The translations under genes were made by a program, and so were the position numbers. A stretch of 52,276 nt of DNA from a virus. Lineage: Duplodnaviria; Caudoviricetes. Positions 3 through 27,388 of the stretch are shown one piece after another (positions within the stretch are counted from its first letter, which is position 1; the number at the start of each line of letters is the position of its first letter). The notes beneath the pieces are model-generated. The model saw nothing but the letters and a program-made list of their open reading frames with translations, was not told the DNA's origin and did not search any database. The DNA lies in the IMG/VR virus record IMGVR_UViG_3300047552_000486, positions 1-52,276 of that record. The stretch is one strand, 5' to 3'.

Positions 3-1880
3 TGTTACTGTGTACTTACCTGGAGCAGCACCGTCACTGCCTTTGAGAATGAACTCAACAGCAGTACCACTACCAGCAGGAATAGCAGCAACTACAGTAG
101 CCGCAGTTGATGTGGTCGTAACCGTCGCACCACTGATAACGGCAGCACTGTTAGCGCCTACTGTTACCGTAGTGTTAGCAACAACAGCACCGCCAGTTAC
201 TGTACCAGCAGCAGTTACAGCGCCGTTAGCCGCATAGTTCTGCGCTCTCATACTTGCTAGAGTAGCAAAGTCAACTGTTGTACCGGGTTCAGTTGCTGTA
301 TCGTACAACTTCCATACACCGTCACTAGCGTCACGTGCGATACCAGCAAACATCTGTGTACTAGATCCATTGACGTATCTACCAACAATACCTAGGTCTT
401 GTAGGTCGGCTGGGTTGCCTTCGCCAAGCACTAATAACGGGTCACTTAGTTTTGTGTTCTCTACGTCCAGGTACACTAAGTTGCCACTAACAGTCAAGTT
501 ACCGTCAATGTTTGTGTCACCGGTGATGTTAGCACCTCCGGCTGCTACGTTTAAGAAGTTACCGACTAGCAAGTTAGCGCTGATATTAGCCCAGCCGCTA
601 GCAATAGTCAAGTTACCGGCCGTAATGTCTACGTTACCCGCTGTGACTTCTGCTCCGCCGCTAGACACTGTTAGTTTGTCGCCGACTGTTAGCGTGTTAG
701 AGATGTTGCCTAAACCAGTGACTAGTAGTGTGCCAGTGACATTAGCACCGCCACTTGTTACCGTCACGCCTGTGCCGACTACCAAGTTTGCTGTTACGTT
801 GCCGTCACCAGTGATAAGCACGTTACCAGTGATGTTAGCACCGCCGCTTGTTACCGTTACGATGTTACCGAATGTACCACTGCCAGTTACGTTACTATCG
901 CCGTCGATGAGCACGTTGCCAGTGATATTGGCGCCGTTTGCTAGAACTGTTAGCTGACCACCTAGACCTAGTGTTGATGTGATGTTAGCGATACCATCAA
1001 TCATTACACTACCAGTAATGTTAGCGCCGTTTGCTGTTACAGTTAGTTTGTCGCCCACGTCTAATGTTGATGTAACATTACCTGTGCCGGTGATGAGTAC
1101 GTTGCCAGTGATGTTAGCACCACCAGTTGTTACTGTTAGTGCGTTACCAACTGTTACTGAGTTAGTGATGTTAGCTACGTCAGCGGAGATGTTACCAACT
1201 AGAGTTAGACCTGTGCTGTCTAGTGTTGCTACGTTATTGCCGTTGACGTTAGAAGTAATCTGACCGTTTGCAGTAGCAATACCAATAAATGTTTCGCCGT
1301 TAGCAATACGAGAAGCGTCAACTTGTGCCCATGTGAGGTTGCCGTTGCCGTCTGTCTTCAAGAAGTCATTAGTGTTGCCGCCAGGAATGTGTATGTTAGC
1401 AATGTTTGAGAATGTAACGTTAGCACCAACAACAGATAAGTTTGAGATTTCTACGTTACCGTTGAAGTCAACGTTGCCGTTGTTTTGACTAATACCACCG
1501 TCGAAGTTTACACCTGTATCAGTAAAGATAGCAATGTTAGCATTGCCGCCTACACTTACTCGTACACTTGAGTTAGCATCGATAGATACGTTTGAGTTGC
1601 CGTTTGCTAATGAGTCGCTGCTTACTGTTGCCCAGCTTAGATTACCGTTACCATCTGTCTTCAAAAACTGAGCGTTTGTGCCGCCGTTGATGTAGATTTT
1701 TGAAATGTTGCCGAGACGAACATCTGGTCCGTTGAACAATACGTTACCGCTGCCAGTGAACTCAACGTTACCGTTAGCCGTAAGCGCCGCTGCCGTAATG
1801 TTTGCGTTGCTGTCGATTACGTCAGTAGCGATGGTCCCTACTGATAGTCCCTTAGCAACATTGAATGATTTTAATGCCAT
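3..1880 (-). CDS. Tail-fibre/virion fibre-like protein, 3' end runs off the left edge (>=626 aa; not in the ORF track)
   Basis: Manual translation from ATG at 1880 (AAGGA SD upstream): MALKSFNVAKGLSVG...FLKTDGNGNLSW...FLKTDGNGNLTW...GGANITGNVLI repeats...LVYLDVENTKLSDPLLVLG...FAGIARDASDGVWKLY. No stop found before position 3. Rich in G/N/T/V, as in trimeric beta-structured fibres. Confidence 0.8.
   Translation of the reverse strand, partial: MALKSFNVAKGLSVGTIATDVIDSNANITAAALTANGNVEFTGSGNVLFNGPDVRLGNISKIYINGGTNAQFLKTDGNGNLSWATVSSDSLANGNSNVSIDANSSVRVSVGGNANIAIFTDTGVNFDGGISQNNGNVDFNGNVEISNLSVVGANVTFSNIANIHIPGGNTNDFLKTDGNGNLTWAQVDASRIANGETFIGIATANGQITSNVNGNNVATLDSTGLTLVGNISADVANITNSVTVGNALTVTTGGANITGNVLITGTGNVTSTLDVGDKLTVTANGANITGSVMIDGIANITSTLGLGGQLTVLANGANITGNVLIDGDSNVTGSGTFGNIVTVTSGGANITGNVLITGDGNVTANLVVGTGVTVTSGGANVTGTLLVTGLGNISNTLTVGDKLTVSSGGAEVTAGNVDITAGNLTIASGWANISANLLVGNFLNVAAGGANITGDTNIDGNLTVSGNLVYLDVENTKLSDPLLVLGEGNPADLQDLGIVGRYVNGSSTQMFAGIARDASDGVWKLYDTATEPGTTVDFATLASMRAQNYAANGAVTAAGTVTGGAVVANTTVTVGANSAAVISGATVTTTSTAATVVAAIPAGSGTAVEFILKGSDGAAPGKYTVT
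700..1150 (-). repeat. Five degenerate 93-nt (31-aa) tandem coding repeats, TV..(G/N)GAN(I/V)TG
   Basis: ccagt(g/a)a(t/c)(g/a)tt(a/g)gc cores start at 733, 826, 919, 1012 and 1105, an exact 93-nt period. A further copy lies near 520. Confidence 0.85.
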
Positions 1881-1893
1881 GATTTATTTCCTT

Positions 1894-2946
1894 TTATTGG
1901 TAGAGAGTCACTACTAGTCGGTAGTCCACCCGATTAGCAGAACTTGGTGTAGCGATTACTCTTACGAGACCGCCCGATTGGTCCATGTAGAATGAGGCCA
2001 TTTCTGTGCCGATAACAACATTTCCGTATTGACTATAGGATGTATTAGTGTCTTTTGTTACGCTCAACATCTTAGTAATCTGTTTTGATGTGCCGTCATC
2101 GGCCGTTATGTGAACATCAATACTACTAACTGTATTAGCAGCAGTGAATAACACTGTTGGGTTGGTAGTCATCGTTACTGCGTCTAACCATCTGTTAGTT
2201 GAGATAGTTGTAGTAGAGTTGCCTAGAATGAAGTTATTACTAGTGAATACGTTAGCAATAGCACCAGCATCAGTAACCGTCATCACGTTAGCGTTGCCGC
2301 CCACTGTGAAGTTTACGTTTGAATTAGTTTCGATTGATACCGTACTAGAACCGTCATTGATGTTGTTGCTGCCGCCAGCTACAGAAATCGATGTCCACGT
2401 TACGTTGCCGTTACCGTCAGTGCGCAGAATGTCGCCGCTAGTGCCGCCTAAGATGACCAAGTTAGCCACTTGACCGAGATTAGCAACGTTACCTACCTGT
2501 AGATTAGCCGTCTTTAGCCAACCATTGAGTTGTAGGGTATCGCTGTCACTCCAGTATTTGAAGTCACTATCAGCGCTGAACTTGCCATCTCTATAGAACT
2601 GCACATCACCTATGGCGCCAGCTACGTTATTGACTGATATATTTTGGGTAACTCGCTGAATTACCGGAGCTACGCTTGTATCTACAGTAGTGGTGGCCGC
2701 GCTTGGAGACACGGTGGCCGCCCGAGGAACTGCGATTGTAATGGGTGCTGACACCGGAGCAACTACCGCTGTGGTGGCGCTTCCTACGAGTCCCTGTGCG
2801 GATACTGTGGTACTAGCAACTGCGCGAACTGCTACTGTCGGCGTTAATGAGACTCCAGAATCTACGGCAACTTGACCACGCCCAGTTATTGGGGTAGTAG
2901 ACGCGATTTGAGGGCTATCGATTGCTGGTGCTTGGGGTCTTGCCAT
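1894..2946 (-). CDS. Fibre-related virion protein, paralogous to the downstream gene
   Basis: Shares GG.....L(R/K)TDGNGN..W and VSI..NS.V...VGGNAN motifs with the 1880 gene, and has an A/T/V/P-rich N-terminal linker. Start moved from 2988 to ATG 2946 because the late motif lies at 2966-2973. Confidence 0.7.
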   Translation of the reverse strand: MARPQAPAIDSPQIASTTPITGRGQVAVDSGVSLTPTVAVRAVASTTVSAQGLVGSATTAVVAPVSAPITIAVPRAATVSPSAATTTVDTSVAPVIQRVTQNISVNNVAGAIGDVQFYRDGKFSADSDFKYWSDSDTLQLNGWLKTANLQVGNVANLGQVANLVILGGTSGDILRTDGNGNVTWTSISVAGGSNNINDGSSTVSIETNSNVNFTVGGNANVMTVTDAGAIANVFTSNNFILGNSTTTISTNRWLDAVTMTTNPTVLFTAANTVSSIDVHITADDGTSKQITKMLSVTKDTNTSYSQYGNVVIGTEMASFYMDQSGGLVRVIATPSSANRVDYRLVVTLYQ

Positions 2947-3063: not shown

Positions 3064-3597
3064 GTGGTCAAATCTAGATACAATAACTTCGCTGAATACG
3101 AACTCAAGGATGCTAACTTCCTAATCAAGGTACTCAAAGATGAGTTATACAAGACTCAGGCAAAGATTGAGTTCAAGGATGGCAGTACCTACCATGTAAC
3201 TAAATCAGGTAGTAGATATTGGGAGAAGAATAAACAGATGCATCGCGAGGATGGACCATCAAGCTCATATATGTGGAGCGGCGAGGTCCGCAATAGATAC
3301 TATTTGTTCTCAGTTCACTTTGAAGATGTCGAGGATCACACGAATGCTGTTGTTCGACTCAATGAACTTAGAACTCTGACTGATGGCAAGATTGAAGGCA
3401 TCGTGGAAGAGATTACTAAGAATATCAGTTACGACCAAAGAGGTGCCATTTGGCGCACTCTTCTCAGTGGCAAAAACGATGATCAGGTATTACTCGACAT
3501 CACTGCCCTGTCTCAGGAGTACGTCAGACTAACTAAGTTGTCCACTGATTTTGTGTCTAAGTACTCTACATTGCCCGAGTCTGTCGATCAGCCTTAA
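3064..3597 (+). CDS. Early hypothetical protein with an HREDGP motif
   Basis: 177 aa, GTG start, AGGA SD, downstream of the sigma70 promoter. YWEKNKQMHREDGP resembles the HRxDGPA motif common in large-virus hypothetical proteins. Confidence 0.7.
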   Translation: MVKSRYNNFAEYELKDANFLIKVLKDELYKTQAKIEFKDGSTYHVTKSGSRYWEKNKQMHREDGPSSSYMWSGEVRNRYYLFSVHFEDVEDHTNAVVRLNELRTLTDGKIEGIVEEITKNISYDQRGAIWRTLLSGKNDDQVLLDITALSQEYVRLTKLSTDFVSKYSTLPESVDQP

Positions 3598-3610
3598 TAA
3601 ATATCCGACA

Positions 3611-5311
3611 ATGAAGCAAAAAATATTAGATATTATCTCCCAGAAGCCAAAGCGATTCACATTCATCATTGCGCGTGATGCGTCTCTACTAGACTGGGTA
3701 ATGAATAACTCAATCATTGACCCAGCGTCTCCGCTTGTGCAACACGTATACAGTGCTCTACATAACAGCACTAATGTATGTCCCCACGGCGGGGTCAAAG
3801 GACTACGTAATATTACTCTAGGATGGTCTACTGGTTGTGGTCCAGCTGGCAAATGCAAATGTACTCGTGCCGCGGTAAGTGCATCGGTAAGTGCCAATAA
3901 ACAGGCTAGGTCCAAAGAGGACATCAAAGCAGAGAACAAAAAACGTGAAGCTACTAATCTAAAGACGCATGGCGTCAAGAATACTGGACAAACTAAACAG
4001 GCCAAAGCTAATCACGCTGCGTTCTACGCTGATCCCACTAGTGCGGCAGCAGCTGTAGTAAAGCAGCAGGCAACAATGACTCTGTTATACGGACAAGATA
4101 ACCCAATGAAGGTTACTCAGTTTAAAGATGCCGCCATCGCGACAAGTATACAACGCTATGGCGTAGCTAACCCTATGCAGAATAGCACAATATCGGCGCT
4201 GTCTGCTACAAACCGTAGTATCAACTTTAATAGCAGCGAGTCGATCAAAAAGAACTTCCCCAGCTTCGTCGAGATGTTAAAGAGTTCGTATAACGTTGAG
4301 CCGCTGATGACCGCTGACGAATATATCGGTGTTGGCACCCGGCCGTTCATCAACTTCAAGTGTTGTGATTGTGGTCACACGTTCGTAAAGCGTATGGACT
4401 ATAACGAGACCACTGCACCTTATTGTAAAGTATGTAATCCCTCTGAGAAGTCTTTTTGCTCTAAAGAAGAACAATCTGTGGCAGAATTCATCAAAGAGCA
4501 CTACACTGGCAAGATGGTGATTGGTGACAGAAGTGTGATTAATCCGTTCCAGCTAGATATCTATTTACCAGATTTGAATCTAGCTATCGAATATTGTGGG
4601 TTGTACTGGCACAGTGAGAATGGCGGGGCATCAAAGAAGTTCAGCTATCATCGCATCAAGTACGAGTTAGCGGCCAGCAAAGGCATCCGTTTGATTACGC
4701 TATACAGTGATGAATGGTTACAAAAGCAGGACATTGTTAAAGATAAGCTACTGGCGATTATTGGTGTCACCAAATTAGCGAATATCGGTGCAAGACAGTG
4801 TACAGTCGCCAAAGTTGAACGTGGGGTCGCACGAGCCTTCTACGATGCGCATCACATTCAAGGGTCGTCGATGACAATTGGAGACACTTATGGGCTACAC
4901 CATAATGGTGAATTGGTCGCCGCCATGAGCTTTAAGCGCATTGATGTCGCGAACAATGTATACGAACTATCTAGATTTGCTACTAGATTAAATGTGCGAG
5001 GTGGTGCTAGTAAATTACTTAAACACTTTATCACGGTGTCTGATGCCAACAGTATCGTTAGTTTTGCTGACCTTCGTTGGAGCACGGGTGATATGTACTA
5101 TAAGTTAGGATTCACCAACGTCGGTGAAGTTCCACCAATGCAGTACTACGTTGAGAACTATACTACCAGATACCATAAGTTGAAGTTCAAAAACATCGTT
5201 AATGAGGGCGAAGATATCACCGAGTGGGGTAAGTTACAAAGTCTTGGTTATGACCGTATATGGGACTGCGGTAAGATCAAGTTTGCGTTAGATATCTCTC
5301 GTGATATTTAA
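3611..5311 (+). CDS. Hef/Vsr-like homing-endonuclease-type protein with Zn ribbon and C-terminal GNAT(Mom)-like domain
   Basis: Three (H/Y)GxxN repeats; Zn ribbon CCDC...CKVC; LDIYLPDLNLAIEYCGLYWHSE nuclease motif; C-terminal ELSRFA...GGASKLLKHF...IVSFADLRWS.GDMYYKLGF. Start set at ATG 3611, after AATAAATA at 3596-3603. Confidence 0.75.
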   Translation: MKQKILDIISQKPKRFTFIIARDASLLDWVMNNSIIDPASPLVQHVYSALHNSTNVCPHGGVKGLRNITLGWSTGCGPAGKCKCTRAAVSASVSANKQARSKEDIKAENKKREATNLKTHGVKNTGQTKQAKANHAAFYADPTSAAAAVVKQQATMTLLYGQDNPMKVTQFKDAAIATSIQRYGVANPMQNSTISALSATNRSINFNSSESIKKNFPSFVEMLKSSYNVEPLMTADEYIGVGTRPFINFKCCDCGHTFVKRMDYNETTAPYCKVCNPSEKSFCSKEEQSVAEFIKEHYTGKMVIGDRSVINPFQLDIYLPDLNLAIEYCGLYWHSENGGASKKFSYHRIKYELAASKGIRLITLYSDEWLQKQDIVKDKLLAIIGVTKLANIGARQCTVAKVERGVARAFYDAHHIQGSSMTIGDTYGLHHNGELVAAMSFKRIDVANNVYELSRFATRLNVRGGASKLLKHFITVSDANSIVSFADLRWSTGDMYYKLGFTNVGEVPPMQYYVENYTTRYHKLKFKNIVNEGEDITEWGKLQSLGYDRIWDCGKIKFALDISRDI

Positions 5312-5324
5312 ATAGCACAGCAAC

Positions 5325-5351
5325 AAAAAGGGAACCCGAAGGTTCCCTTTT
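5325..5351. terminator. Bidirectional intrinsic terminator, C(UUCG)G loop on the minus strand
   Basis: AAAAGGGAACC-CGAA-GGTTCCCTTTT between the converging endonuclease and capsid genes. Confidence 0.9.
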
Positions 5352-5357
5352 ATTTTT

Positions 5358-5375
5358 GAGAGACCGAAGTCTCTC
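5358..5375 (-). other. Second C(UUCG)G hairpin in the capsid gene 3' UTR
   Basis: GAGAGAC-TTCG-GTCTCTC on the minus strand, with no U-tract on that strand. Confidence 0.75.
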
Positions 5376-5412: not shown

Positions 5413-6609
5413 TTACTGAAAAGTCACATTTTGAATTGCTACTTCGCCCAAGTAATCTGCTGCATTTCCGAAAGAAGATGCAGTGTTGGTCAATTCCAGG
5501 TAACCATATCGTGTCATGAAACTTACGACTGGTTCGAATGTAGCTGGATCTAATACAACACCACTACTCATCAATGGAATGTATGGGCAGTAGAACGCAG
5601 CAGCGTCAGTTTCGCTTGTGCCCTTGTAACCAACTAGCACTGATGTGCCAGTAGGAGCATAAGAGTCAACGAACACGCGCATGGCCGAATTGAGTGTTCC
5701 TACGAATTTAGTATTAGTTGGAGCCTCGAAGGTACCTTCTGTAGTACGAGCAAAAGCTGAAGTAGTTGCGGATTGCAGTACTGTTAGAGCCTCAGCAGAT
5801 ACAACAGCCCAGTTACCTGCGCCGCGACGAGTGCGTTGAGCGATCAAGTTAGCTGTACGGTTGATTAGAACTGCTAGAGCAGCGTGTTCGTCACCAACGA
5901 AAGTAGCTGTACCAGATACAGTAGCTTGGTTGTATGTGAACTCGGTTGCTGCTAGTGAACGTAGACTCAAGAGGATTTCTTGGTCGATTTCAGCAGTGAT
6001 TTCTTGGGCTAGAGCGGCCATGATTTCTGCTTCAACGTCAATACCATGTTGAGATTGTGCGTCTTGAGCAGCTTCGAATGTCCAACGAGCTTGCAACTTA
6101 CGTGACTTAGCTTCTACGGCTTGACGTAGGATCTGGACAGAGATAGCCTTACCGCCGTTGCCTTCTAGCTTAGCAGTGTTAGCACCTGTGTAACTACTAG
6201 TAGTTGTGTCACCACTTGCAGCTGTAGAGTATGCTTGAGCAATCTTGAATGGTGATAGTGCTTCTTCACCAGCTGTTACAGGAGTAGCAGCAGCAGAAGT
6301 GTCACCTAGTGTGTTAGCGTAACGCACACGTAGAGTGTGGATTTGGCCAACTGGGCCGGTCATTGGCTGAACGCCTACCAATTCGTTAGCGATAACGGTT
6401 GGCATGACACGACGGATAACTGGTAGAATTACGCGGTTTAGCGTAGCGATGTTACCAGCTGTAGTAGTACCGGCTGAACTTTCAGCTAGTAACTGCTTTT
6501 TAGTGTTTTCTAAAATAACACCCATTGATGAGCGCTTGGTGCCCTTGAGACCTTCTAGGAGGGCTTCTTTGGTTTCACCCCAACGGCTCTCTAATAGTAC
6601 TTTTGACAT
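5413..6609 (-). CDS. gp23: Major capsid protein (T4 gp23-like)
   Basis: VGVQPMTGPVGQI, AKSRKLQARWTFEAAQD, EIDQEIL, RRGAGN, FYCPYIPL and FMTRYG motifs. Confidence 0.97.
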   Translation of the reverse strand: MSKVLLESRWGETKEALLEGLKGTKRSSMGVILENTKKQLLAESSAGTTTAGNIATLNRVILPVIRRVMPTVIANELVGVQPMTGPVGQIHTLRVRYANTLGDTSAAATPVTAGEEALSPFKIAQAYSTAASGDTTTSSYTGANTAKLEGNGGKAISVQILRQAVEAKSRKLQARWTFEAAQDAQSQHGIDVEAEIMAALAQEITAEIDQEILLSLRSLAATEFTYNQATVSGTATFVGDEHAALAVLINRTANLIAQRTRRGAGNWAVVSAEALTVLQSATTSAFARTTEGTFEAPTNTKFVGTLNSAMRVFVDSYAPTGTSVLVGYKGTSETDAAAFYCPYIPLMSSGVVLDPATFEPVVSFMTRYGYLELTNTASSFGNAADYLGEVAIQNVTFQ

Positions 6610-14656: not shown

Positions 14657-15487
14657 ATGAGTAACGACAATAACCCACTTAAAGCGTATTTCAGACGCCC
14701 TGCTATCTACTTCAAGCTACCATCAGGTTCGAAGTACTATGCTGACGGCGTAGTAGATACACCACCAAACGGTGAACTACCAGTCTATCCAATGACTTCA
14801 ATAGACGAATTGACTATCAGAACACCAGACGCCCTATTTAACGGCGCCGCCGTAGTAGACGTAATCAAAAGCTGTATCCCAGCTATCAAAGACCCGTGGA
14901 AGCTCAATGATATCGACTTAGAAGCTATCATTATTGCGATCAGAGCAGCTTCCGTAGATGGTAAGATTGAAATTGCATCAACATGCCCATCTTGTAAAGA
15001 AGATGCTACGTATGACATCGACCTTATGCGTCTACTGGTTACCAAGCGTGACGTAGACTACACTACACCACTCAATCTTGATGAATTAGTATTCCAATTC
15101 CGTCCACTCACGTTTGCCCAAAGCAACGCTAACGCAATGAAGCAGTTCGAAGTTCAACGAATGCTAGCCCAAGTTGATGGTGCGCCCGAAGGAGACGATA
15201 AACAGCAACTTATGAAGGAATGTGTGTCCCAACTCAATTCGATGCTCCTAGACGTTATAGCCGAGACCATTGAGAGTATCGCTACACCAGAAACAGTCGT
15301 CACTGATCCAGTATTCATCCGCGAGTTCTTAGCCGAATGTGACACAAAGACGAACACCAAGATTAAAGAGTTCAGTGCCAAGCTCAAAACAGCTAACGAC
15401 ACACCTCCTATTAAGATTGAATGTATCCACTGTCACCATGAGTATGAGCAACAACTGATCCTGAACTTCACAAGTTTTTTCGCCTAA
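14657..15487 (+). CDS. gp26: Baseplate hub/tail assembly chaperone (gp26-like)
   Basis: LPS...PMT..DE, IRAASV, two CxxC pairs (CPSC, CIHC), FRPLT, C-terminal SFFA; AAGGAG SD. Confidence 0.8.
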   Translation: MSNDNNPLKAYFRRPAIYFKLPSGSKYYADGVVDTPPNGELPVYPMTSIDELTIRTPDALFNGAAVVDVIKSCIPAIKDPWKLNDIDLEAIIIAIRAASVDGKIEIASTCPSCKEDATYDIDLMRLLVTKRDVDYTTPLNLDELVFQFRPLTFAQSNANAMKQFEVQRMLAQVDGAPEGDDKQQLMKECVSQLNSMLLDVIAETIESIATPETVVTDPVFIREFLAECDTKTNTKIKEFSAKLKTANDTPPIKIECIHCHHEYEQQLILNFTSFFA

Positions 15488-15525
15488 GACTTCTCTATAT
15501 GAGCGATGAAGAGATAGAGAAGTTT
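15475..15525 (+). promoter_or_regulatory. Putative -1 ribosomal frameshift signal
   Basis: In-frame T TTT TTC heptamer (15475-15481), 5-nt spacer, stem AGACTTCTCTAT/ATAGAGAAGTTT. The -1 frame is open into the next ORF. Confidence 0.75.
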
Positions 15526-15711
15526 CTTGAATGGCATGTCGCTCAGCAAGGCATAGTAAGAGCTAACGCAGCAAAGATAAGTTGGTACATGCGTGGTGGT
15601 TTAAGTTACACGGATGCACTGAACATGAGTTCAAGTGAGATTGATAACATCAACGCCCTTATCGATGACAACTTAGAGACTACTAAGAAGTCGGGCTTGC
15701 CATTCTTCTGA
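15499..15711 (+). CDS. Small gp51-like hub assembly protein, probably the C-terminal extension of a frameshift fusion
   Basis: WYMRGGLSYTDALNMS..E motif; no SD; its ATG lies in the loop of the stem. Confidence 0.7.
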   Translation: MSDEEIEKFLEWHVAQQGIVRANAAKISWYMRGGLSYTDALNMSSSEIDNINALIDDNLETTKKSGLPFF

Positions 15712-15727
15712 TTTAACTCAGAACTAC

Positions 15728-15750
15728 AAGAGCACCTTCGGGTGCTTTTT
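15728..15750 (+). terminator. Intrinsic terminator with C(UUCG)G loop
   Basis: AGCACC-TTCG-GGTGCT followed by a T-tract. Confidence 0.9.
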
Positions 15751-15772
15751 GTTGGTCTATACATGGAGTACA

Positions 15773-15835
15773 TGGTGCTACGCACGTGTGTATTTTATAG
15801 ATTCTTCATCCGCTCTTGGTGCTACGCACGTGTGT
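15773..15835. repeat. Two exact 19-bp direct repeats TGGTGCTACGCACGTGTGT, each containing a hairpin
   Basis: Copies at 15773-15791 and 15817-15835. Confidence 0.9.
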
Positions 15836-15852
15836 CATTCAGTGTCCATTAC

Positions 15853-15929
15853 GTGTGGTACCCGTCTTCGACGAGTACACACAATTTACTTCGTTTGCTC
15901 CGGCTATCGCCTACGCATACTCGTAAATT
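15853..15929 (-). other. Two adjacent long imperfect hairpins
   Basis: 15853-15882 with CGTC-GAA-GACG core on the minus strand; 15883-15929 AATTTAC...GGC-GATA-GCC...GTAAATT. Confidence 0.7.
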
Positions 15930-16007
15930 ACTTCTTTTTCAGTTCCATAGCAGTCAATTTATCCATTTTATAACTAGTAAATCAGCAAGATATATGAGTT
16001 CACCTTA

Positions 16008-16132
16008 ATACACACCATATACACACCATAGTGCTATACTTCCGAGAATGATTTCGCAATATAGTAGATTACTTTACGCAAAAATGTGAATAATTCGTCA
16101 AAAACCGTGTACTTATAGTGCGATACTTCCGA
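16008..16132. repeat. Tandem 11-mer ATACACACCAT x2 and 18-bp direct repeat ATAGTGC(T/G)ATACTTCCGA x2
   Basis: 11-mers at 16008-16018 and 16019-16029; 18-mers at 16028-16045 and 16115-16132 (17/18 identical). Confidence 0.85.
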
Positions 16133-16240
16133 CGATTTCTGTGTATAACTTTGTGACTTTTCGGTTGATCCAAAATGCTTGATTTTTTTGATATTTTTAG
16201 TTTAAAATAGCGAGACTATAACTCCGATTTAACAATTTAA

Positions 16241-17371
16241 ATGACAAAAAAACAATATATTCCAAATTTCAAAGACAAACGAGTAGTTGCCAGAATCCGC
16301 CGCGCTCATGGTTTCGCCAAAGCCATGCTGCGTGAAGCAAAGTGGGTACCATGTAGCCGAACTATGTTAGACAAGCACCTTGGGTTACACAATAGTGACT
16401 TGGGTCGCTATCTTCGTTGGTTACTGTTGATTGGATCGGCTGAACCATATTCAATGCACGATGGTGTTGTAAAGCGATACAAACTAAACAAACCTGGTTT
16501 AGACTTCCTCCGTTATCAGATCAATACACCGAACAACGACTATACATACCACGACCATCTTGAAGGTAAAGTATGGATCGATACTACTTCTGAACAGGCG
16601 CTCGAATATGAACATAAACTATCGCATGAGACTGTCTCAGAAGCCTACCACGCGACACACGGTGAAGAACTCACGTCATTGAACTTTATCTACAATGACA
16701 AGTCCAGCCGTCTCTGGCACCCTATCCAGAACATCAAGCGCGAGTACAAGACTAAACTACTCGAAGATGCTGGTTTGAAGTACCACTATGACATTGTTTG
16801 CTGTGCACCGACATTGATTGCAGGTCACGCTAAGAATTTAGGAATGGAAACGTATCCCGAGTACATCTATGGTTATATCGAGTGTCGTGACGCGGTGCGT
16901 GAATCAATGGCTATTGATTTGGGAGTTGATGAAGAGTCAGTCAAACGAGCAATCTTGGCTCTCTTTTGTGGCGCACGGTGTGGTACTAATGAGCGATTTG
17001 CTATCTTCAATCTACTGGGAAGTGTCAAAGCGGTCACTGAGTTCAGAGAGCACTTCTTTGTCAAAGGTGTGCGCGAAGAGATTAAAGACTGTTGGGAAGC
17101 AATCAGACCGACTATTGGTAAACGCACTATTGAAGATAAGAATGGTATTGAGCGGGTATTACCAATCAGTAGCAGACAGAAGTGGGGCGTTTACTTTGAT
17201 ATCGAGCGCACGGTGCTGAACGCGGTCTCTGATTACTTGGACAGCTACGATAATGGTCACTTCTTAGAGCATGACGGTTGGTCATGTGAAGATGTGGTTG
17301 ATACTGTAGCAGCAAGCGCGTATATCAAAGCTGCTACTGGATTCGAGATTGAGATTGTTGAATCTGATTAA
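16241..17371 (+). CDS. Minimal family-A/T7-like polymerase-fold protein with possible N-terminal winged helix
   Basis: RLWHPIQNI (R157), motif A YDIVCCA (D184), motif B VKRAILALFCG (K235), motif C LEHDGW (H344, D345), in the canonical order. Confidence 0.65.
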   Translation: MTKKQYIPNFKDKRVVARIRRAHGFAKAMLREAKWVPCSRTMLDKHLGLHNSDLGRYLRWLLLIGSAEPYSMHDGVVKRYKLNKPGLDFLRYQINTPNNDYTYHDHLEGKVWIDTTSEQALEYEHKLSHETVSEAYHATHGEELTSLNFIYNDKSSRLWHPIQNIKREYKTKLLEDAGLKYHYDIVCCAPTLIAGHAKNLGMETYPEYIYGYIECRDAVRESMAIDLGVDEESVKRAILALFCGARCGTNERFAIFNLLGSVKAVTEFREHFFVKGVREEIKDCWEAIRPTIGKRTIEDKNGIERVLPISSRQKWGVYFDIERTVLNAVSDYLDSYDNGHFLEHDGWSCEDVVDTVAASAYIKAATGFEIEIVESD

Positions 17372-21067: not shown

Positions 21068-21076
21068 GTAGGTTTG

Positions 21077-21147
21077 GATAAATAAAGATGAAGGTCACGA
21101 GATTGCCGTCTCTACCCTCTCTAACTGCTAAGAAGGAGCAAGTCAGC
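21077..21147 (+). promoter_or_regulatory. Late promoter GATAAATA plus two-hairpin 5' leader overlapping the SD
   Basis: GGT..GAGAT-TGCC-GTCTC.ACC and CTAACTGCT-AAGAAGG-AGCAAGTCAG immediately before ATG 21148. Confidence 0.6.
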
Positions 21148-21899
21148 ATGACTATTTATTATTTAATGGTGAAGACCCACCGTAAAACAGGTCTAAAATA
21201 TCTGTGTCAGACTAGACAAAAAAATCCCTACACATACCCTGGTTCTGGAGTAGACTGGTCAAAGCATTTGAAGGAATTCGGTGAAGATATCCATACCGAG
21301 ATACTGTTTAAAACCACTACCAAAAGCGAGTTGAATGCTCAGGGAAGATATTATAGTACATTATTTCGTGTAGTAACTGCTGCCGATGATTATGGTAATA
21401 AAATATGGGCAAATTTAATCCCAGAGACTGGTGGTGGCCCAGGCTGGACCAGTGAACAGTGTGATCGACGCATGGTGAAAATAGTTTCGGAAGGTAAACA
21501 TCATTGGCAAAAGAGGGCCGATGGGACATCCCGCGCGTCTGATTCAGTGATAGATGGTACCAATGCTTGGCTCAAACGTTCAGATGGTTCATCGGTTGCC
21601 GGTGATAGAGTAAAGAATGGTACTCATAATTTTTAAAAAGACAAGATGGTACATCGATTCAGACTGACAGAGTTAAGAATGGCACTCATAATTTACTCGG
21701 TGCCAACAAGGGGAAAGATAATCCTCGCTATTCAGAACTGACTTACAATTTTGCCCATATTGATGGTAGATTAGAATCCAACGTGACGCAGTTTTATATG
21801 AAGATGAAGTATGATAATTTACATTCATCTAAGATGTCTTTGTTGGTTAAAGGACATAGAAATTCACATATGGGATGGCGAATAGTTCATCGTTATTAG
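21148..21899 (+). CDS. Seg-like GIY-YIG homing endonuclease split by a -1 frameshift at ~21633
   Basis: IYYLMVKTHRKTGLKYLCQT...YPGSG...EIL...WANL. Frame 0 stops at 21636. The -1 frame continues LKRQDGTS...GKDNPRY...LVKGHRNSHMGWR to TAG 21899. Confidence 0.75.
21505..21692 (+). repeat. Three 21-aa repeats (W/F).KR.DG(T/S)S...D.V..GT
   Basis: Copies start at 21505, 21568 and 21631. The third is 62 nt rather than 63. Confidence 0.85.
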
Positions 21900-22029: not shown

Positions 22030-22971
22030 ATGAGCACACAACAAACACTAATACCAACAGCAAAGAAGCCCGTCAATTACTTGGCCAATAAAGATATCTT
22101 AGTTCAGATTCATCTTAGCAAAAACACCTACTGCCAATTCACACAGCCAGAATATCATCAATACGACTTTATTGTTGACTATTTGGACAATTCTAGTTTA
22201 GAGGCAAACTTAGAATATGCCTGCAGGGAAGAGACTATCTTACAAGCAAAGACAAACCGCGCCCTGCGTTTAGATGCGGTTGCTGGGAATCCTAAAGGCA
22301 CTACTCCTCCAGAATCCATAGATAAAGAAGACTTAATTATTCGCGTCATGACCTGGGCACATATTCCACTTGCACCAAAAGCTCCAAAGAAGGTCACCAA
22401 GAAGAAGAGTGCTAAAGAGATATTTGACTTTGGAGATGAAGATGACTCATTCGCGGATCTGGAAGTAGACGCGCCAGTTAAACTAGATGACTTGGTTCAT
22501 GTCAGAGTAAACTTCCCACCATTCCAACATTACAAGTTTGATGGAGCTGGCAGCTTAATCTGTGTTGGTAAGTCACACTGGGAAGGCGATATGGTGACTG
22601 GTGAATTCGCCCGAGATAAAGGTCAAATCACCAATACGCTGGCTAAGATGTATTTGAAGTTGTGTGAGCGTTATGGTACCAAGTGGAATTGGCGCGGCTA
22701 TTCCTACAATGACGAGATGGTGTCATCCGCACTGTTACAATTAACATATGTTGGACTGCGCTTCAATGAAGCCAAGGGTAGTAACCCATTCGCGTATTTA
22801 AGTGCAGTATTAGGTAACGCATTCTGCCGAGTATTGAATACTGAAAAGCGCTCACAGAGTATCCGAGACGACTTAATGGAAGCTAATGGTATTGCACCCT
22901 CATTTACGCGCCAATTTCAAGAAGAGTACGCTCGTGAGATGAAACGGATGGAAGACACTGCTGGTGAATGA
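22030..22971 (+). CDS. gp55: Late-transcription sigma factor (gp55-like) with a large N-proximal insertion
   Basis: NYLANKD...NWRGYSYNDEM...RFNEAKGSNPFAY....NAFCRVLNTEKR. Confidence 0.85.
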   Translation: MSTQQTLIPTAKKPVNYLANKDILVQIHLSKNTYCQFTQPEYHQYDFIVDYLDNSSLEANLEYACREETILQAKTNRALRLDAVAGNPKGTTPPESIDKEDLIIRVMTWAHIPLAPKAPKKVTKKKSAKEIFDFGDEDDSFADLEVDAPVKLDDLVHVRVNFPPFQHYKFDGAGSLICVGKSHWEGDMVTGEFARDKGQITNTLAKMYLKLCERYGTKWNWRGYSYNDEMVSSALLQLTYVGLRFNEAKGSNPFAYLSAVLGNAFCRVLNTEKRSQSIRDDLMEANGIAPSFTRQFQEEYAREMKRMEDTAGE

Positions 22972-22996
22972 TGCTGGAAATGCTGGTTTTTGCATC

Positions 22997-23004
22997 GCTA
23001 AATA
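22997..23004 (+). promoter_or_regulatory. Late promoter GCTAAATA
   Basis: Starts the baseplate operon; an AAGGA SD follows. Confidence 0.7.
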
Positions 23005-23024
23005 GTAGATAAGGACAACATACT

Positions 23025-24290
23025 ATGGCAGATGATACAACAGTCGATGAAGAACCAAGTTCGCAAGGCACACCATATGACGATGATGGCAATCTGAACA
23101 ATGGCTGGTCGACCGATGAAAACGGCGACCCTGTTTGGATCGGTGCCGGCTACGATGACTCCAGTGGTAAGAATATCGAAGATGTCAACGAGGAGGACCC
23201 GTTTGAAGCTGCCAGAATTGCTGCAATCGCGGCAGAAGAAGAAGAGTCGTCTCCCACTGAGCAAGCAGTTATTGACAGTGATCCATTAGGATATTGGGCA
23301 GACCGAGCTGTTAATCTTGCCAGTGGAGCTGCTGATACTGTTGTCGGCGGTCTAAAGAGTTTATTTGGCGCAGATACAAAGACCGGCGGCGCGGGTGCCG
23401 CTCCTGGCAAAACAGCTGCGGTTAACTATTCACAACCACCAGATTGGCGATTCAGAATTACACTTGCCCCTGGCGCAAAGTATCTGTACAACGCTCCTGG
23501 TAACGCTGGTATCTTAGAGCCACTTCGCGGTCGTGGAGTTATCTTCCCGTATACTCCATCAGTGAGTGTCGCGTACAGCGCTGCTTATGAATCGCTACAA
23601 CCAACACATAGTAACTATAAGATCCATCAATATCAAGGTAGTTCAGTTGATACTGTTACTGTTACTGGTGAATTCACGGCACAAGATGTGACTGAAGCAA
23701 ACTATATGTTAGCTGTGATTCACTTCTTACGCTCTTCTACCAAAATGTTCTATGGACAAGATACTTCACCAAGAGCAGGCACACCACCACCACTCCTATA
23801 CTTGAGTGGCTTTGGTCAATTCCAATTTGATAATCATCCAGTGGTGCTGCAAAACTTTACCTATTCATTGCCGACTGACGTTGATTATATTAATGCGTAT
23901 CCTAGTGGTGGTACTGTTGGTGTTACTGGTGCAGATTTGTCGCCTTATTTGAAGAACTCACCACTTGGTCGCATGAGCGCTAGTGGTTTGATTAACTCAA
24001 TTGCTGGCGCTGGTATCTCGCGTTTAAAAGGTGCATTCGGTGACAGTAAACTAGGCAAGATGGCCGGTGATAAAGTTGGTGGTATGTTGGGAGGCGCAAT
24101 TAGTGGCGCTGTTGGTGGTGGCGGAGGCGGCGCAGCTATACTAACTCGTGTTCCTACAAAGATGAGCATTACTCTGACGTTCTTGCCAATTGCCACCCGT
24201 CGAGCAGTTAGTAATGAATTCAGTTTGCAAAAGTATGCTAAGGGTGAATTGCTCAATAGTAAAGGCAGAAGTGGTGGAGGTATGTGGTAA
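23025..24290 (+). CDS. Baseplate/tail-tube initiator-like protein (gp48/gp54-like)
   Basis: FPYTPSV...GTPPPLLYLSGFG...VVLQNFTYSLP..VDY...VPTKMSITLTF tube-fold pattern; first gene of the baseplate cluster. Confidence 0.65.
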   Translation: MADDTTVDEEPSSQGTPYDDDGNLNNGWSTDENGDPVWIGAGYDDSSGKNIEDVNEEDPFEAARIAAIAAEEEESSPTEQAVIDSDPLGYWADRAVNLASGAADTVVGGLKSLFGADTKTGGAGAAPGKTAAVNYSQPPDWRFRITLAPGAKYLYNAPGNAGILEPLRGRGVIFPYTPSVSVAYSAAYESLQPTHSNYKIHQYQGSSVDTVTVTGEFTAQDVTEANYMLAVIHFLRSSTKMFYGQDTSPRAGTPPPLLYLSGFGQFQFDNHPVVLQNFTYSLPTDVDYINAYPSGGTVGVTGADLSPYLKNSPLGRMSASGLINSIAGAGISRLKGAFGDSKLGKMAGDKVGGMLGGAISGAVGGGGGGAAILTRVPTKMSITLTFLPIATRRAVSNEFSLQKYAKGELLNSKGRSGGGMW

Positions 24291-24589
24291 TGGCTTATTC
24301 AGTTACTAGTCCGTATTACGGAACTCGTGTTGTTGACAACAAGTATCTTGATGTGATGCGTAATCGTCCGATTACTGGTGAGGTCACTGACCAGCACTGG
24401 GCAATCACAACCGTGTACAATCTTCGCCCTGACTTATTAGCAAGTGATCTTTATGGTGATAGTAGATTGTGGTGGGTATTTGCTCAGCGTAATCCTAATA
24501 CCCTTCAAGACCCGTTGTTTGACTTTGTAACTGGTACTTACATTTATGTGCCAACTGCTGATGCTGTTAAACGTGCACTAGGAATTTAA
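24290..24589 (+). CDS. gp53: Baseplate wedge protein (gp53/LysM-like)
   Basis: RPDLLASDLYGDSRLWWVFAQRN; TAATG overlap with the previous gene. Confidence 0.85.
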   Translation: MAYSVTSPYYGTRVVDNKYLDVMRNRPITGEVTDQHWAITTVYNLRPDLLASDLYGDSRLWWVFAQRNPNTLQDPLFDFVTGTYIYVPTADAVKRALGI

Positions 24590-24592
24590 AGT

Positions 24593-27388
24593 ATGGCTAC
24601 GGCAGCAGAATCAACATTAGCAAGTTTAACAGCGCAATATGATAGCGCAGTAGCAGCAGCAAGTGCGGCAGAAGCAGCTGCTGAATCACGCAGAGCTTCG
24701 GTCATTGCTTCTGGTGGTGAACCGTCTGAAGATGCTGAGTATCAAGCACTGGCAACTAAGTCTAGCGAATTAAACAAGGAAGTTGCGTCACTACAGGCGC
24801 AAGTCTATCAAGCGACCAATGATGTAAAAGCCGAAGCAGAAGCCGCGCAACGCGAGGCTGAGACTAAAGCAAAAGAATCAGAAGATGCAAAGAACGCAGC
24901 ACCAGCAGAGACAAAAAAGACTGCTGAGAACAAAGAAGATGAAGACAAGAAGCCAGAGAGTGACCAAGATAATCCTACGCAACAGTCATTAGCTTCTGGT
25001 ACCACACCAGCTAACGAATCAAAGAACGCAGATGTAAAGAGTGGACAAAAAGCAGGCAGTGGTACAACTGACGATAAAGAATCAGCAGACACGATTAAAC
25101 CTAAGATTAATCCACTTAGTGTACTGAGTAGTTACACATACGCAATCTCGCTCTATATGGTAACTCCTGAAACTATGAACAAGTTTACAGTAACTGGTAG
25201 CTTGAATGGTCTCAAGGGCAAGAATAAAGGCGACAGCGGTGATGGTGTTTATGTTGTTGCGCAGAGTGGCGGTATCAATAATAGTGTTGAAGATCGCTTG
25301 CTTACTATCGACCACAAATTAGGTGGCGGTCGCGAAGGTTACGATTACTACATTGACAACCTGCAGCTACAAACCCTCTTACCAGGTGGCGAAAACCGCG
25401 CGTCTGTTTCTACTTCAATTAAATTCAAAATCATTGAACCAAATAGTTTTGTATTCTTACAAGACATTGCCCGTGGCGCTGCTGAATTAAATGCGCGAAG
25501 TATACTCTTAAAGAGTCTACCAGATGGCCGTAAACCAAACGGGTTTAATCAACACTTTATTCTCGGCATCAAGTTCTATGGTTACGATGTCAATGGTGAG
25601 ATGATTACCAGCGCGAGTCCTGGATTCTCAGAATACAGTAACGGTGACAAAACTGATCCTGCTAGTGTTATTAATCGATACTTCGCAATCAAGTTTAGTG
25701 ATATGAAGTTTAAGATTGATGGTAAGACTGTTGTTTATGATTGTGAAGCACTGGTAATTGCTGAGCAAGCGGCTTATGGTAAAATTAACGCAACAATCAA
25801 AAAAGACTTTACGATATCTGGATCAACTGTTGGTGACGTAATTAATGGTGATGGTTCTGGTATTACCAGTCTTGCTACGGTTCTTAACAACGAAAAAGAT
25901 GCGCTATTGGATCGCAAACTGGTCGAAGCGCCTGGTAAAGTTGCTTTTGAATTCATCAATGATGCTGGCAAAGTATTAACTAACAGTGAGATTGCGGCAG
26001 CTGGTCTTATTAACGATGCTACATACACGGCAGCTACTAGTGCAATCTCAGTTGCAAAAACTACTAACGAAGTCACAATTGCTGACTCGGTTAAATCAAA
26101 CGGCATCGACAAATCAAAAAAGACAATCTCTGTTGCTCATGGACAAAACATATTAAACGTACTAGACAACATCATTGTTAAAAGTAATTATATCACCGAC
26201 GCACTCAAAGCAATCGCGGATGAAAACGTCGAGACTACCACTATTGCAAAAGCAGTGACTAAGAAATTAAAGTGGTATACGGTGAATCCGGTCGTTGAAG
26301 TTGGCACTGTTGATAAAGTTACTGGTTTGTGGAAGTATGATATCACGTATCAAATCAAGCCGTTTATGATTCCATATATCAGAACAAACAAAGCTGGTCT
26401 CACCAGTAAATATCCTGGCCCGTATAAACAATACAAATATTGGTTCACTGGTGAAAACAGTGAAGTGACTTCTTATACTCAGCAGTACGACAACTTGTTC
26501 TATACGGTTAATAGTATGAGTACCGACACTAGTAATTCTGCTAAAGCAGAAGGTGGTGCACCAGCGGCACCAAGTAACGGCTCTGCTAGCGATCAAAGTA
26601 GTGGCGCACAAAACAAAGGCAGTATGTTGAACGATGAAGTTCGTGCGCAGCTGTATAGTCCTAGTGACCAAAGTTCTGCAAAGATCACTATTCTTGGTGA
26701 CCCAGATTACATCATGACTGGTGTTGGTGTGCGTAATGGATACCTAAACAAATTCCATAGTAAAGATGGTAGCATATCGCCATTCGGCACACAGGTCTTT
26801 ATCGAGATGTCATTTAATATGTCAACTGACTATACCGACAACGGCGTACTAGATGTCACAGACCAACTTCAATTCTACAAAACTGATCGCACAAAGAAGG
26901 CCGGTATTCAGGGTATTGTTTACATGGTTAATAGTGTTGAGAGTACGTTTAACAAAGGCGCGTTCACACAAGTATTGGATTGCTTGTTGGTAATGGAAGA
27001 TAAATTAGTAACTGGTGATGCAAGTGTCGGCGCAGATCAACGAGCAACTGATGGCAATAACAGTGATGGTACTGGAACTATTAAAGGTGCTGGTGATACT
27101 AAGTCTGCTAAGAATCAAGTGCAGAGTGGAAGAGCCACAACAAATAGTAGCGGTAAGCCTAGTGCGCCCGCTGAGTCTAGTACCGAAGTGCGTGACAGTA
27201 ATGTTGAAGTGCCGCCGCCAGATCGCAGTGAAGAAGAAACTTCACCAACTGAAAAAGATGTACTTGCGGCTATGGACACACCAAACAACACGCTTACTAC
27301 AACTAATGGCGTCTCTGGTGTAGACGATGACGCTAAAGTGTATACAGGCGCCACCGACTACTATGACGCAGGCGATGAGACTGCTTAA
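24593..27388 (+). CDS. Baseplate hub protein (gp27-like) with low-complexity termini
   Basis: Lies between gp53 and gp5; ITILGDP and GIVYMVNSVESTF..G.FTQ.L are typical of hub C-termini. Confidence 0.65.
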   Translation: MATAAESTLASLTAQYDSAVAAASAAEAAAESRRASVIASGGEPSEDAEYQALATKSSELNKEVASLQAQVYQATNDVKAEAEAAQREAETKAKESEDAKNAAPAETKKTAENKEDEDKKPESDQDNPTQQSLASGTTPANESKNADVKSGQKAGSGTTDDKESADTIKPKINPLSVLSSYTYAISLYMVTPETMNKFTVTGSLNGLKGKNKGDSGDGVYVVAQSGGINNSVEDRLLTIDHKLGGGREGYDYYIDNLQLQTLLPGGENRASVSTSIKFKIIEPNSFVFLQDIARGAAELNARSILLKSLPDGRKPNGFNQHFILGIKFYGYDVNGEMITSASPGFSEYSNGDKTDPASVINRYFAIKFSDMKFKIDGKTVVYDCEALVIAEQAAYGKINATIKKDFTISGSTVGDVINGDGSGITSLATVLNNEKDALLDRKLVEAPGKVAFEFINDAGKVLTNSEIAAAGLINDATYTAATSAISVAKTTNEVTIADSVKSNGIDKSKKTISVAHGQNILNVLDNIIVKSNYITDALKAIADENVETTTIAKAVTKKLKWYTVNPVVEVGTVDKVTGLWKYDITYQIKPFMIPYIRTNKAGLTSKYPGPYKQYKYWFTGENSEVTSYTQQYDNLFYTVNSMSTDTSNSAKAEGGAPAAPSNGSASDQSSGAQNKGSMLNDEVRAQLYSPSDQSSAKITILGDPDYIMTGVGVRNGYLNKFHSKDGSISPFGTQVFIEMSFNMSTDYTDNGVLDVTDQLQFYKTDRTKKAGIQGIVYMVNSVESTFNKGAFTQVLDCLLVMEDKLVTGDASVGADQRATDGNNSDGTGTIKGAGDTKSAKNQVQSGRATTNSSGKPSAPAESSTEVRDSNVEVPPPDRSEEETSPTEKDVLAAMDTPNNTLTTTNGVSGVDDDAKVYTGATDYYDAGDETA

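Follow-up and report, generated by a model that had tools for sequence, protein, structure and literature searches.

In phage T4, the replication origins oriF and oriG are middle-mode promoters (a sigma70 −10 element, no −35 and an activator site) followed by a downstream unwinding element; at least five origins are used, several of them near transcription strand switches, and oriE has iterons (as outlined in PMC3016281). T4-like phages also carry PeSLs, conserved composite terminator/promoter motifs that flank variable open reading frames (ORFs) and have been implicated in indels (as outlined in PMC4122927; see also PMC2839356). The early promoters that the virion RNA polymerase of phage N4 uses are template-strand hairpins with a 3-nt loop closed by a sheared G:A pair and a recognised G at −11, the stem measuring 7 bp in the crystal of the solved P2 promoter (in the sections of PMC4496689 concerned). 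The cultured jumbo phage PA5oct depends on its host's RNA polymerase and has non-coding regions that are transcribed, one lying at a divergent junction behind the tail genes (in the sections of PMC7318152 concerned). Here we compare with these systems a hairpin array at positions 15773–15929 of IMGVR_UViG_3300047552_000486, a viral DNA sequence of 52,276 nt that constitutes the entire IMG/VR record and is called the window below. The array belongs to a non-coding cassette found in three places, which may be a factor-dependent transcription-start region.

A non-coding cassette in three copies

The first-pass annotation, made from the window alone, had described a strand-specific array of C-GNA-G mini-hairpins. 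The hairpins exist as described, yet the array makes up one module within a larger cassette that was invisible to this first reading. The array is the conserved 5′ module (boxes A and B, hairpins 2 and 3; ~115 nt) of a cassette of ~330 bp, which spans ~15817–16150 in the window, starts at the second of two 19-mers and lies in a gap of 530 bp (15712–16240) between a 70-aa ORF on the left and a 376-aa ORF on the right. The matching block of the window (15814–16151) is 82% identical to positions 4325–4649 of a second contig, G001, and the window cassette is 74% identical, in an alignment running from 58326 to 58027, to the minus-strand block at 58012–58326 of a third, G002; the copies in G001 and G002 are 71% identical to each other.

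The order of parts is the same in all three copies: box A, box B, hairpin 2, hairpin 3, a variable spacer containing TATCCA, the promoter-like region P1, a second variable spacer, the promoter-like region P2, the boxes TGTGTATAAC and TCCAAAAT, a canonical sigma70-type promoter and a gene (Table 1). The orientation toward this next gene is also the same in 3/3 copies, and the genes themselves are unrelated (P0001 in the window, a 401-aa phrog_11903 protein in G001 and a row of small early-type ORFs in G002). The distance to the nearest switch of coding strand is 0–2 kb for each of the three cassettes. Box A is preceded at 25–30 nt by a terminator in the window and G002, and in G001 it borders on the beginning of a divergent late virion gene, whose GATAAATA-N4-ATG is typical of late starts in this phage and would be leaderless; in all three copies the module is cut off from upstream plus-strand transcription.

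Within the cassette, the unpaired parts of the module are as conserved as the stems, and the spacers diverge with indels. This mosaic of invariant boxes amid diverging spacers points to selection, and the invariance of unpaired stretches suggests recognition by a protein. The cassette does not code for protein: plus frame 0 stays open in the window and G001 copies, but no frame survives in G002, owing to a stop ahead of box A and to the 1-nt insertion in the hairpin 3 loop.

The window (52 kb), G001 (44.5 kb) and G002 (150 kb) together comprise 247 kb. The window is a fragment of a T4-core jumbo myovirus of the PA5oct/Rak2-like type: it encodes T4-type capsid, portal and prohead protease, baseplate gp5/6/25/53, SbcCD-like gp46/47 and a gp55-like late sigma factor, and its capsid protein is 64–67% identical to those of Sinorhizobium phage Phosso, Vibrio phage 2.275.O, the PA5oct group and Rak2-like coliphages. 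No orthologous gene is common to the three records, and the cassette is their only substantial DNA similarity. In the DNA runs X1 and X2 the assembly breaks at the cassette and the loose ends bear G001-type and G002-type flanks; depths in X1 are 111–152 for the variant cassette pieces and 121–126 for the flanks (contig depth not being a copy number), and the contigs of run X3 contained no new cassette variant. Because the depths are similar in the same runs and the CheckV completeness values are 15, 13 and 42% for the window, G001 and G002, the simplest reading is that three diverged cassette copies probably reside in one genome of ~350 kb, ~30% of which would lie outside the three contigs.

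At the protein level, the three records resemble each other in repeated fibre-like modules with 30–55% aa identity (window 600–2600, G001 22400–25000 and G002 ~125,000), and the sole other protein match covers 47 residues (window 21088–21636, G002 ~116,000).

Scans of the viral collection with the 19-mer, the hairpin 2 core, the 18-mer of P1 and P2, an 18-nt piece of P1 and a piece of hairpin 3 returned only the copies in G001 and G002, and a covariance model of the module (R1) found no further copy in 496 kb beyond the three copies in 247 kb. Metagenome scans gave no match and then four chance matches, and a blastn search with window positions 15000–17000 matched no cultured phage. Several look-alikes were set aside: loci L010–L014 and L032–L039 are chance matches in coding DNA, six matches from a scan of the genome collection share only the hairpin core, by construction, and a partial resemblance at G002 ~63,070 lies inside a coding region. 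Separately, a Flavobacterium franklandianum contig (L088) carries an intergenic cassette of its own, 220–330 bp long and repeated four to five times (384–552, 1198–1528, 2516–2788, 3313–3597 and 4229–4487); its hairpin stem shares ~20 nt with hairpin 2 including the wobble position, probably by chance, and the contig has no protein similarity to the phage. The portions of the literature on PA5oct promoters and non-coding RNAs (ncRNAs), PeSLs and intergenic repeats of jumbo phages that we consulted contain no description of such a cassette.

Folding and conservation of the hairpin module

Everything that the first-pass annotation had read directly from the letters proved correct. The 19-mer TGGTGCTACGCACGTGTGT occurs at 15773–15791 and 15817–15835, 100% identical and with starts 44 nt apart, and both copies contain GTGC-GTA-GCAC on the minus strand, which also carries CGTC-GAA-GACG (15863–15873) and GGC-GATA-GCC (15902–15911). 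The C at 15862 faces an A at 15874 on the plus strand, corresponding to a G.T pair on the minus strand, where the internal loops of hairpin 3 are GUA/GGA. The RNA hairpins of the window had been said to use UUCG instead, and three perfect C-UUCG-G hairpins are present, at 15731–15746 (+), 5358–5375 (−) and 5326–5351 (−). The GNA loops, whose loss in relatives would have spoken against the array, are kept throughout the three copies, as GTA in 3/3 and as GAA, GCA and GAA in hairpin 2. The two-fold repeat of the 19-mer, on the other hand, is no general feature: the window copy carries a local 44-bp duplication, and G001 and G002 have the 19-mer once. Nor do nearest-neighbour energies of the 4-bp hairpin show anything of the exceptional stability that had been ascribed to the C-GNA-G motif. 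The mini-hairpin DNA of the d(GCGNAGC) type (PMC13037366) shares the C-GNA-G closing pair and loop, and its stability is a property of the short motif itself, whereas here the frequency of the motif is about as expected.

Allowing up to three mismatches, the 19-mer occurs twice compared with 0.06 expected occurrences, and none of 100 shuffles reached two. The bare 11-nt hairpin with at most one mismatch is not unusual (2 compared with 1.04 expected; 28 of 100 shuffles reached 2), and of 4-bp-stem hairpins whose GNA loop is closed by a C-G pair the window has two on the plus and five on the minus strand, the simulated mean being 5.2 for both strands together. Three of them fall within 15775–15873 on the minus strand. 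Clustering on the same strand within 160 nt was seen for at least two such hairpins in 10 of 300 simulations and for at least three in none of the 300, but since two of the three clustered hairpins are the duplicated 19-mer, the independent count is two. The strongest evidence against chance is the conservation of the hairpins in the two further copies.

Folding both strands with DNA and RNA parameters bore out the strand preference for hairpins 2 and 3 but not for the 4-bp mini-hairpin, which is insignificant on either strand (z-score −1.2 to −1.5). For the whole 171 nt, the RNA z-score is −3.1 on both strands and the DNA z-score is −1.5 (minus) and −2.2 (plus). Hairpin 2 folds with −8.7 kcal/mol on the minus and −7.3 kcal/mol on the plus strand as DNA, and with −17.0 (z −4.2) and −13.5 kcal/mol (z −2.6) as RNA; the corresponding values for hairpin 3 are −7.8 and −5.6 kcal/mol as DNA and −15.8 (z −4.2) and −11.6 kcal/mol (z −3.3) as RNA. 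Both hairpins are thus more stable on the minus strand by 1.4–4.2 kcal/mol, as DNA and as RNA, and the consensus fold of the three copies has −36.4 kcal/mol on the minus compared with −29.1 kcal/mol on the plus strand. The minus strand is the better folding candidate, and folding as DNA and folding as RNA are both compatible with the data.

Among the three copies, the 79-column core of the module contains four substitutions and one indel. These comprise the loop centre of hairpin 2 (A, C and A on the minus strand), which is the sole substitution in that hairpin, the 1-nt insertion in the loop of hairpin 3, one compensatory pair and one pair broken in a 2-bp helix. The compensatory pair lies in the outer helix of hairpin 3, where A-T is replaced by G-C on both sides in G002 with the pairing kept, and accounts for two of the three core substitutions of G002; by rough reasoning, the chance of such a coincidence would be ~1–3%. 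Covariation across the copies, suggested beforehand as a check, gave one event in favour and one broken pair against. Base pairing within a single strand has probably been selected.

In the window, Rfam gave no match at gathering score, and at E values of up to 10 the region 15600–16300 gave only two weak matches, both on the upstream terminator. When the three copies were read by eye, no promoter conserved among them was apparent ahead of the module, for the plus or the minus strand. The absence of both leaves room for a folded signal at the DNA level. The first-pass annotation is supported in its strand asymmetry and by the retained GNA loops, but the N4-type mechanism attached to it is unsupported (see below). 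A T run follows hairpin 3 in only 2/3 copies, and neither hairpin 2 nor hairpin 3 is an intrinsic terminator, whichever strand is considered. Inspection by eye also led us to reject intrinsic terminators of the minus strand (no U run), a sigma54 promoter in box A, ends of the IS200/IS605 or REP type (no second end hairpin and no transposase seen) and a CRISPR-like mini-array (repeat and spacer too short).

Promoter-like parts and the preferred reading

Motif counts over 282 ORF upstream regions returned GATAAATA as the top 8-mer, present in 22 regions compared with 1.5 expected. It lies exactly 12 nt before an ATG (GATAAATA-N4-ATG) in 7 of its 29 occurrences, suggesting a variant of the gp55-type late promoter that would give leaderless late mRNAs. 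Sites are located at window 9692 (−), 21077 (+), 31088 (+) and 34910 (+) and at G001 4318 (−), with several more in G002. One of these sites, together with the ORF start behind it, is spanned by an 87-nt resemblance of 76% identity between window 21073–21159 and G001 40307–40223, which may mark paralogous gene starts. Ordinary early promoters appear to have the form TTGACA-N14-TGnTATACT; eight were recognised by eye among 34 TGnTATAC[TA] matches (−35 plus extended −10 at window 3025 and 21998, G001 31270 and G002 16198, 33856, 75656, 79056 and 81330).

P1 and P2 keep the extended −10 (TGnTATACT or TGnGATACT) but have no −35, and in P1 two tandem 11-mers ATACACACCAT fill positions −39 to −18. 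Each cassette contains the 18-mer common to P1 and P2, ATAGTGCKATACWTCCGA, twice; elsewhere it is absent from the window and L003, with 0.04–0.08 occurrences expected. The motif TACACAC, which forms the 11-bp repeats of P1, is 30-fold enriched in the cassettes, 8 of its 42 occurrences falling in 1.5 of the 247 kb, and it also stands, in one orientation or the other, beside hairpin 2, P2 and the TGTGTATAAC box. As judged by eye, conservation ends right after TCCGA, where a plus-strand start would lie. The pattern is that of factor-dependent promoters such as those of the T4 middle mode, as far as sequence comparison can indicate. A T7-type promoter on the minus strand and an extended −10 on the plus strand are nearly reverse complements of each other, so the 18-mers do not distinguish these two readings.

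We therefore favour, at a probability of roughly 40%, a cis-acting, factor-dependent transcription-start cassette whose module acts on DNA. It would be a transcription-start region of a special, rare class, in which a phage DNA-binding factor recognises the TACACAC motifs and recruits the host sigma70 RNA polymerase to the −35-less extended −10 promoters P1 and P2, following the logic of the T4 middle mode or of PhoB-type activation. The upstream folded module would be part of the same control region and would work on the DNA, as palindromes to which protein binds or, once opening or supercoiling of the duplex allows it, as hairpins of the minus strand, and not as a separately made RNA. The sequences themselves show the anatomy, the copy number, how conservation is distributed, the strand asymmetry and one compensatory pair; promoter activity, the factor and the DNA-level action are what we infer from these patterns.

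Several points weigh against this proposal. The MotA and AsiA families were not found in the 247 kb (~30% of the genome lying outside), and there is no candidate for the activator. Since a canonical sigma70 promoter of its own already precedes each downstream gene, expression does not require P1 and P2. At 100–190 nt upstream of P1, the module is rather distant for a normal activator site. Folding of a single strand is favoured by the compensatory pair and the conserved G.T, and a purely double-stranded protein site would not need it; with only three copies, this covariation amounts to one event set against one broken pair. Lastly, we infer the membership of the three contigs in one genome, in part from contig depths, which are not copy numbers.

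Table 1. Cassette features and immediate flanks, in positions of the window; P1, P2 and the sigma70-like elements are predicted promoters.
Feature	Position	Strand	Description
Terminator of upstream 70-aa ORF	15731–15755	+	C-UUCG-G hairpin, then T run; outside the cassette, marks its left limit in the window
Extra 19-mer (box A)	15773–15791		Window only; the next 25 nt are a degenerate echo of box B and flank (by eye)
Box A TGGTGCTACGCAC	15817–15829	−	Identical 13/13 in all three; mini-palindrome GTGC-nnn-GCAC (C-GTA-G on minus strand)
Box B ATTCAGTGTCCAT	15837–15849		Identical 13/13 in all three; unpaired in the minus-strand consensus fold
Hairpin 2	15853–15882	−	13 pairs including conserved U.G/T.G; loop GAA/GCA/GAA; outer two pairs in window only
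Hairpin 3	15884–15929	−	Outer helix AATTTAC/GTAAATT; purine-rich internal loops (minus strand); loop GATA, GACTA in G002
TATCCA	15960–15965		Sole part of the variable spacer kept in three copies; minus strand reads TGGATAAATT in 2/3, 7/8 of GATAAATA
P1 region	15978–16047	+	Conserved upstream box GAGTTCACCTTAA; 11-bp direct repeats ATACACACCAT (16008–16029) replacing −35; extended −10 TGCTATACT (16032–16040); then TCCGA
P2 region	16099–16135	+	Inverted GTGTAC motif; 18-mer ATAGTGCGATACTTCCGA (16115–16132) with TGCGATACT; no −35
Boxes TGTGTATAAC(TTTG) and TCCAAAAT	16140–16176	+	Three cassettes only; TGTGTATAAC has 4 matches, all within cassettes
Downstream gene's own sigma70-like promoter	16179–16208	+	Window TTGATT-18-TAAAAT; by reading, G001 TTGACT-17-TAGAAT and G002 TTGACA-17-TATACC
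P0001, 376 aa, downstream gene	16241–17371	+	Residues ~135–376 modelled as A-family/T7-RNAP-like polymerase palm and fingers; outside the cassette

Alternative explanations and implications

A T4-type replication origin in three homologous copies is unlikely, though the likeliest of the alternatives, and it does not exclude the transcription-start reading, since T4 origins are promoters. Transcripts from P1 and P2 would form an R-loop in A+T-richer downstream DNA and prime rightward synthesis, and the hairpin module on the left would fold on the minus strand as the lagging-strand template of the leftward fork, serving as a priming or helicase-loading signal. This would give a reason for a strand-specific, untranscribed folded module. 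Like oriF and oriG, the predicted promoters P1 and P2 combine a sigma70-type extended −10 with no −35 and a potential factor site upstream (the 11-bp repeats at −39 to −18), the TACACAC motifs in both orientations resemble the repeated short motifs of oriE, and the three copies, like several T4 origins, lie near strand switches. The differences are the failure to find MotA and AsiA in the 247 kb, the lack of a clear conserved unwinding element and the large folded module upstream. The DNA downstream of P2 is modestly A+T-rich (~62–70% compared with a genome mean of 57%, by eye) and not conserved, T4 origins share no sequence whereas the three cassettes do, GC skew merely follows gene orientation, and the hairpins could equally serve transcription. 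A further point in favour of an origin is the next gene in the window, which encodes an A-family polymerase; mobile elements can use such an enzyme as a primase (as presented in PMC10061031).

This gene product, P0001, matches no Pfam or PHROG family. At least 219 homologues were found at E values of up to 0.001, in metagenomes and none in cultured phages. Its structure model is confident (predicted local distance difference test, pLDDT, 95.1; predicted template modelling score, pTM, 0.88), and among the Foldseek matches listed (ranks 1–50) all are A-family DNA polymerases (E from 3.3e-4, TMq 0.32–0.39). Over residues ~135–376, VIA-align gave Z values of 11.5 for Pol nu, 11.4 for Klenow, 10.5 for T7 RNA polymerase (RNAP), 8.0 for N4 RNAPII gp16 and 4.9 for the N4 mini-virion RNA polymerase (mini-vRNAP); T7 RNAP is thus tied with the Pol I-type enzymes at 11.0–11.5. 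On this structural modelling, the segment is an A-family DNA polymerase/T7-RNAP-like palm and fingers, the ~130 residues on its N-terminal side having no assignment, and P0001 may be a TV-Pol/CcPol-like primase or a minimal RNA polymerase. D184, K235 and H344-D345 are invariant in 44 sequences of the family, and the invariant Ala189 presumably sits at the position of the steric-gate Glu of Pol I and Gly of T7 RNAP. A profile of the family against chains of the PDB gave nothing meaningful.

The neighbourhoods of the homologues (methyltransferases, ParB-like and HNH nucleases, unknowns) give no clue to function. At 40 other loci of homologous genes there is no constant upstream element (18 of the 40 overlap or abut the upstream ORF, and eight have a gap of at least 200 nt), what lies upstream of a relative of the downstream gene in L002 is different, and the covariance model did not detect the module at any of the 44 loci searched. 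Because these loci have neither a constant upstream element nor the module, a link between P0001 and the cassette is only a possibility. A version of the origin reading that joins the two is correspondingly improbable: transcription from P1 and P2 at one of three homologous initiation sites would open the duplex, and the exposed minus-strand module would serve as a folded single-stranded DNA priming or loading signal used by P0001 as a TV-Pol/CcPol-type primase or minimal RNA polymerase. If true, it would keep the core of the first-pass idea, a folded single-stranded DNA signal and a single-subunit polymerase, in a T4-like phage.

Rather doubtful, too, is that the module is a gene for a small structured RNA, transcribed most likely on the minus strand from the spacer start (the TGGATAAATT box) or on the plus strand and ending at the T run after hairpin 3. 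The minus-strand RNA z-scores of hairpins 2 and 3 (−4.2, with none of 200 shuffles as good), the lower consensus energy of that strand, the G.U pair, the purine-rich internal loops and the compensatory pair would all suit an RNA, and GATAAATT, 7/8 of the late-promoter-like motif, stands on the minus strand just before hairpin 3 in 2/3 copies, with hairpins upstream of the module being terminator-like in both directions in the window and G002. No promoter, however, is conserved in all three copies on either strand (by eye); the box in G001 reads GATACTTT, and a minus-strand RNA would there enter the late structural gene that has its own GATAAATA-N4-ATG start. Unpaired parts are conserved like the stems, Rfam has no match to the module even at E 10, and an independent RNA gene would not need an orientation locked to the downstream gene. 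PA5oct has four ncRNAs (ncRNA001–004), defined by RNA-seq, which resemble the cassette in being long non-coding intergenic regions in the same jumbo-phage clade, ncRNA003, like the G001 copy, lying where a divergent junction follows tail genes; the relevant account does not report them as repeats of each other (PMC7318152). In sequence, ncRNA001 and ncRNA002 have no similarity to the cassette, nor by eye has the ncRNA003 region.

It is improbable that the cassette is a PeSL-like mobile regulatory element, in which stem-loops and promoters would spread by offering expression signals and homology for modular gene shuffling and the hairpins would be mere stem-loop or terminator parts. PeSL/PmSL elements are likewise non-coding composites of stem-loops and host-type promoters, dispersed in T4-core genomes before unrelated variable genes and possibly substrates of shuffling (Arbiol 2010; Comeau 2014, PMC4122927, as far as their descriptions extend), and here one cassette precedes three unrelated genes and the window copy has its local duplication. 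PeSLs as described there, however, are small, numerous and scattered through hyperplastic regions, with a terminator stem-loop and near-consensus −35/−10 promoters (PMC4122927), whereas the cassette measures ~330 bp, occurs three times in 247 kb and has neither a −35 in P1 and P2 nor a conserved T run. Its hairpins 2 and 3 are not terminators and real terminators already precede the module; its long invariant boxes and 11-bp repeat array suggest specific recognition.

The mechanism offered by the first-pass annotation, an N4-like promoter at which a single-subunit RNA polymerase reads minus-strand C-GNA-G hairpins on an extruded or single-stranded template and starts at the adjacent ACACAC, is hardly credible in a phage with a T4 core (gp23, gp20 and gp55-like sigma), sigma70 early and gp55-type late promoters and dependence on the host RNA polymerase. 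The likeness lies in strand-specific GNA triloops in all copies, which the N4 loop matches with its sheared G:A closing, in three sites per genome, in a geometry with the hairpin on the would-be template strand and rightward transcription toward the gene, and in an adjoining gene for a polymerase of the Pol A/T7 RNAP superfamily. Against it stand a 4-bp stem in box A that is insignificant by energy and has T at the loop centre, and a hairpin 2 of 13 pairs with wobble, bulge and loop centre A/C/A, where N4 needs a G at −11. N4 promoters are conserved from −17 to +1, start region included, but here the start region is not conserved, all 7 nt beside box A (GTGTGTC) differing in G002, where ACACAC is lost. 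N4 mini-vRNAP is the weakest of the structural matches to P0001, whose homologues elsewhere lack the module; no vRNAP was found in the 247 kb, and PF00940 had no match in any of the three records (controls likewise gave none, and ~30% of the genome lies outside). The giant ORF of the window (34943–51649, +; 5568 aa), which follows the baseplate wedge genes, is structural: its first ~2800 residues match the virion structural protein family phrog_10938 (profile of 3324 positions), and no RNAP domain was found in it.

Elsewhere in the window, a homing-endonuclease-like ORF (3551–5311, +; phrog_3339/559) lies beside the major capsid gene (5413–6609, −), and the PA5oct record annotates a Hef-like homing endonuclease at the same place beside its capsid gene. 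No tRNAs were found, and a baseplate-hub query gave no related loci.

Jumbo phages of the PA5oct/Rak2 clade serve as models and therapy candidates, and to our knowledge very little is known of their signals for control and replication. With its three retained copies, the cassette offers a concrete candidate for a special promoter class or for replication origins, testable because of its invariant boxes, the 11-bp repeat array that replaces the −35 and its strand-asymmetric folded module. If it were only a promoter/terminator composite, PeSL-like shuffling cassettes would exist outside the classical T4 group. The polymerase family of P0001 opens a line of enquiry of its own into how nucleic-acid synthesis is initiated in phages. 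Should the module function as folded DNA, hairpin-type signals would extend beyond N4-like phages and single-stranded replicons.

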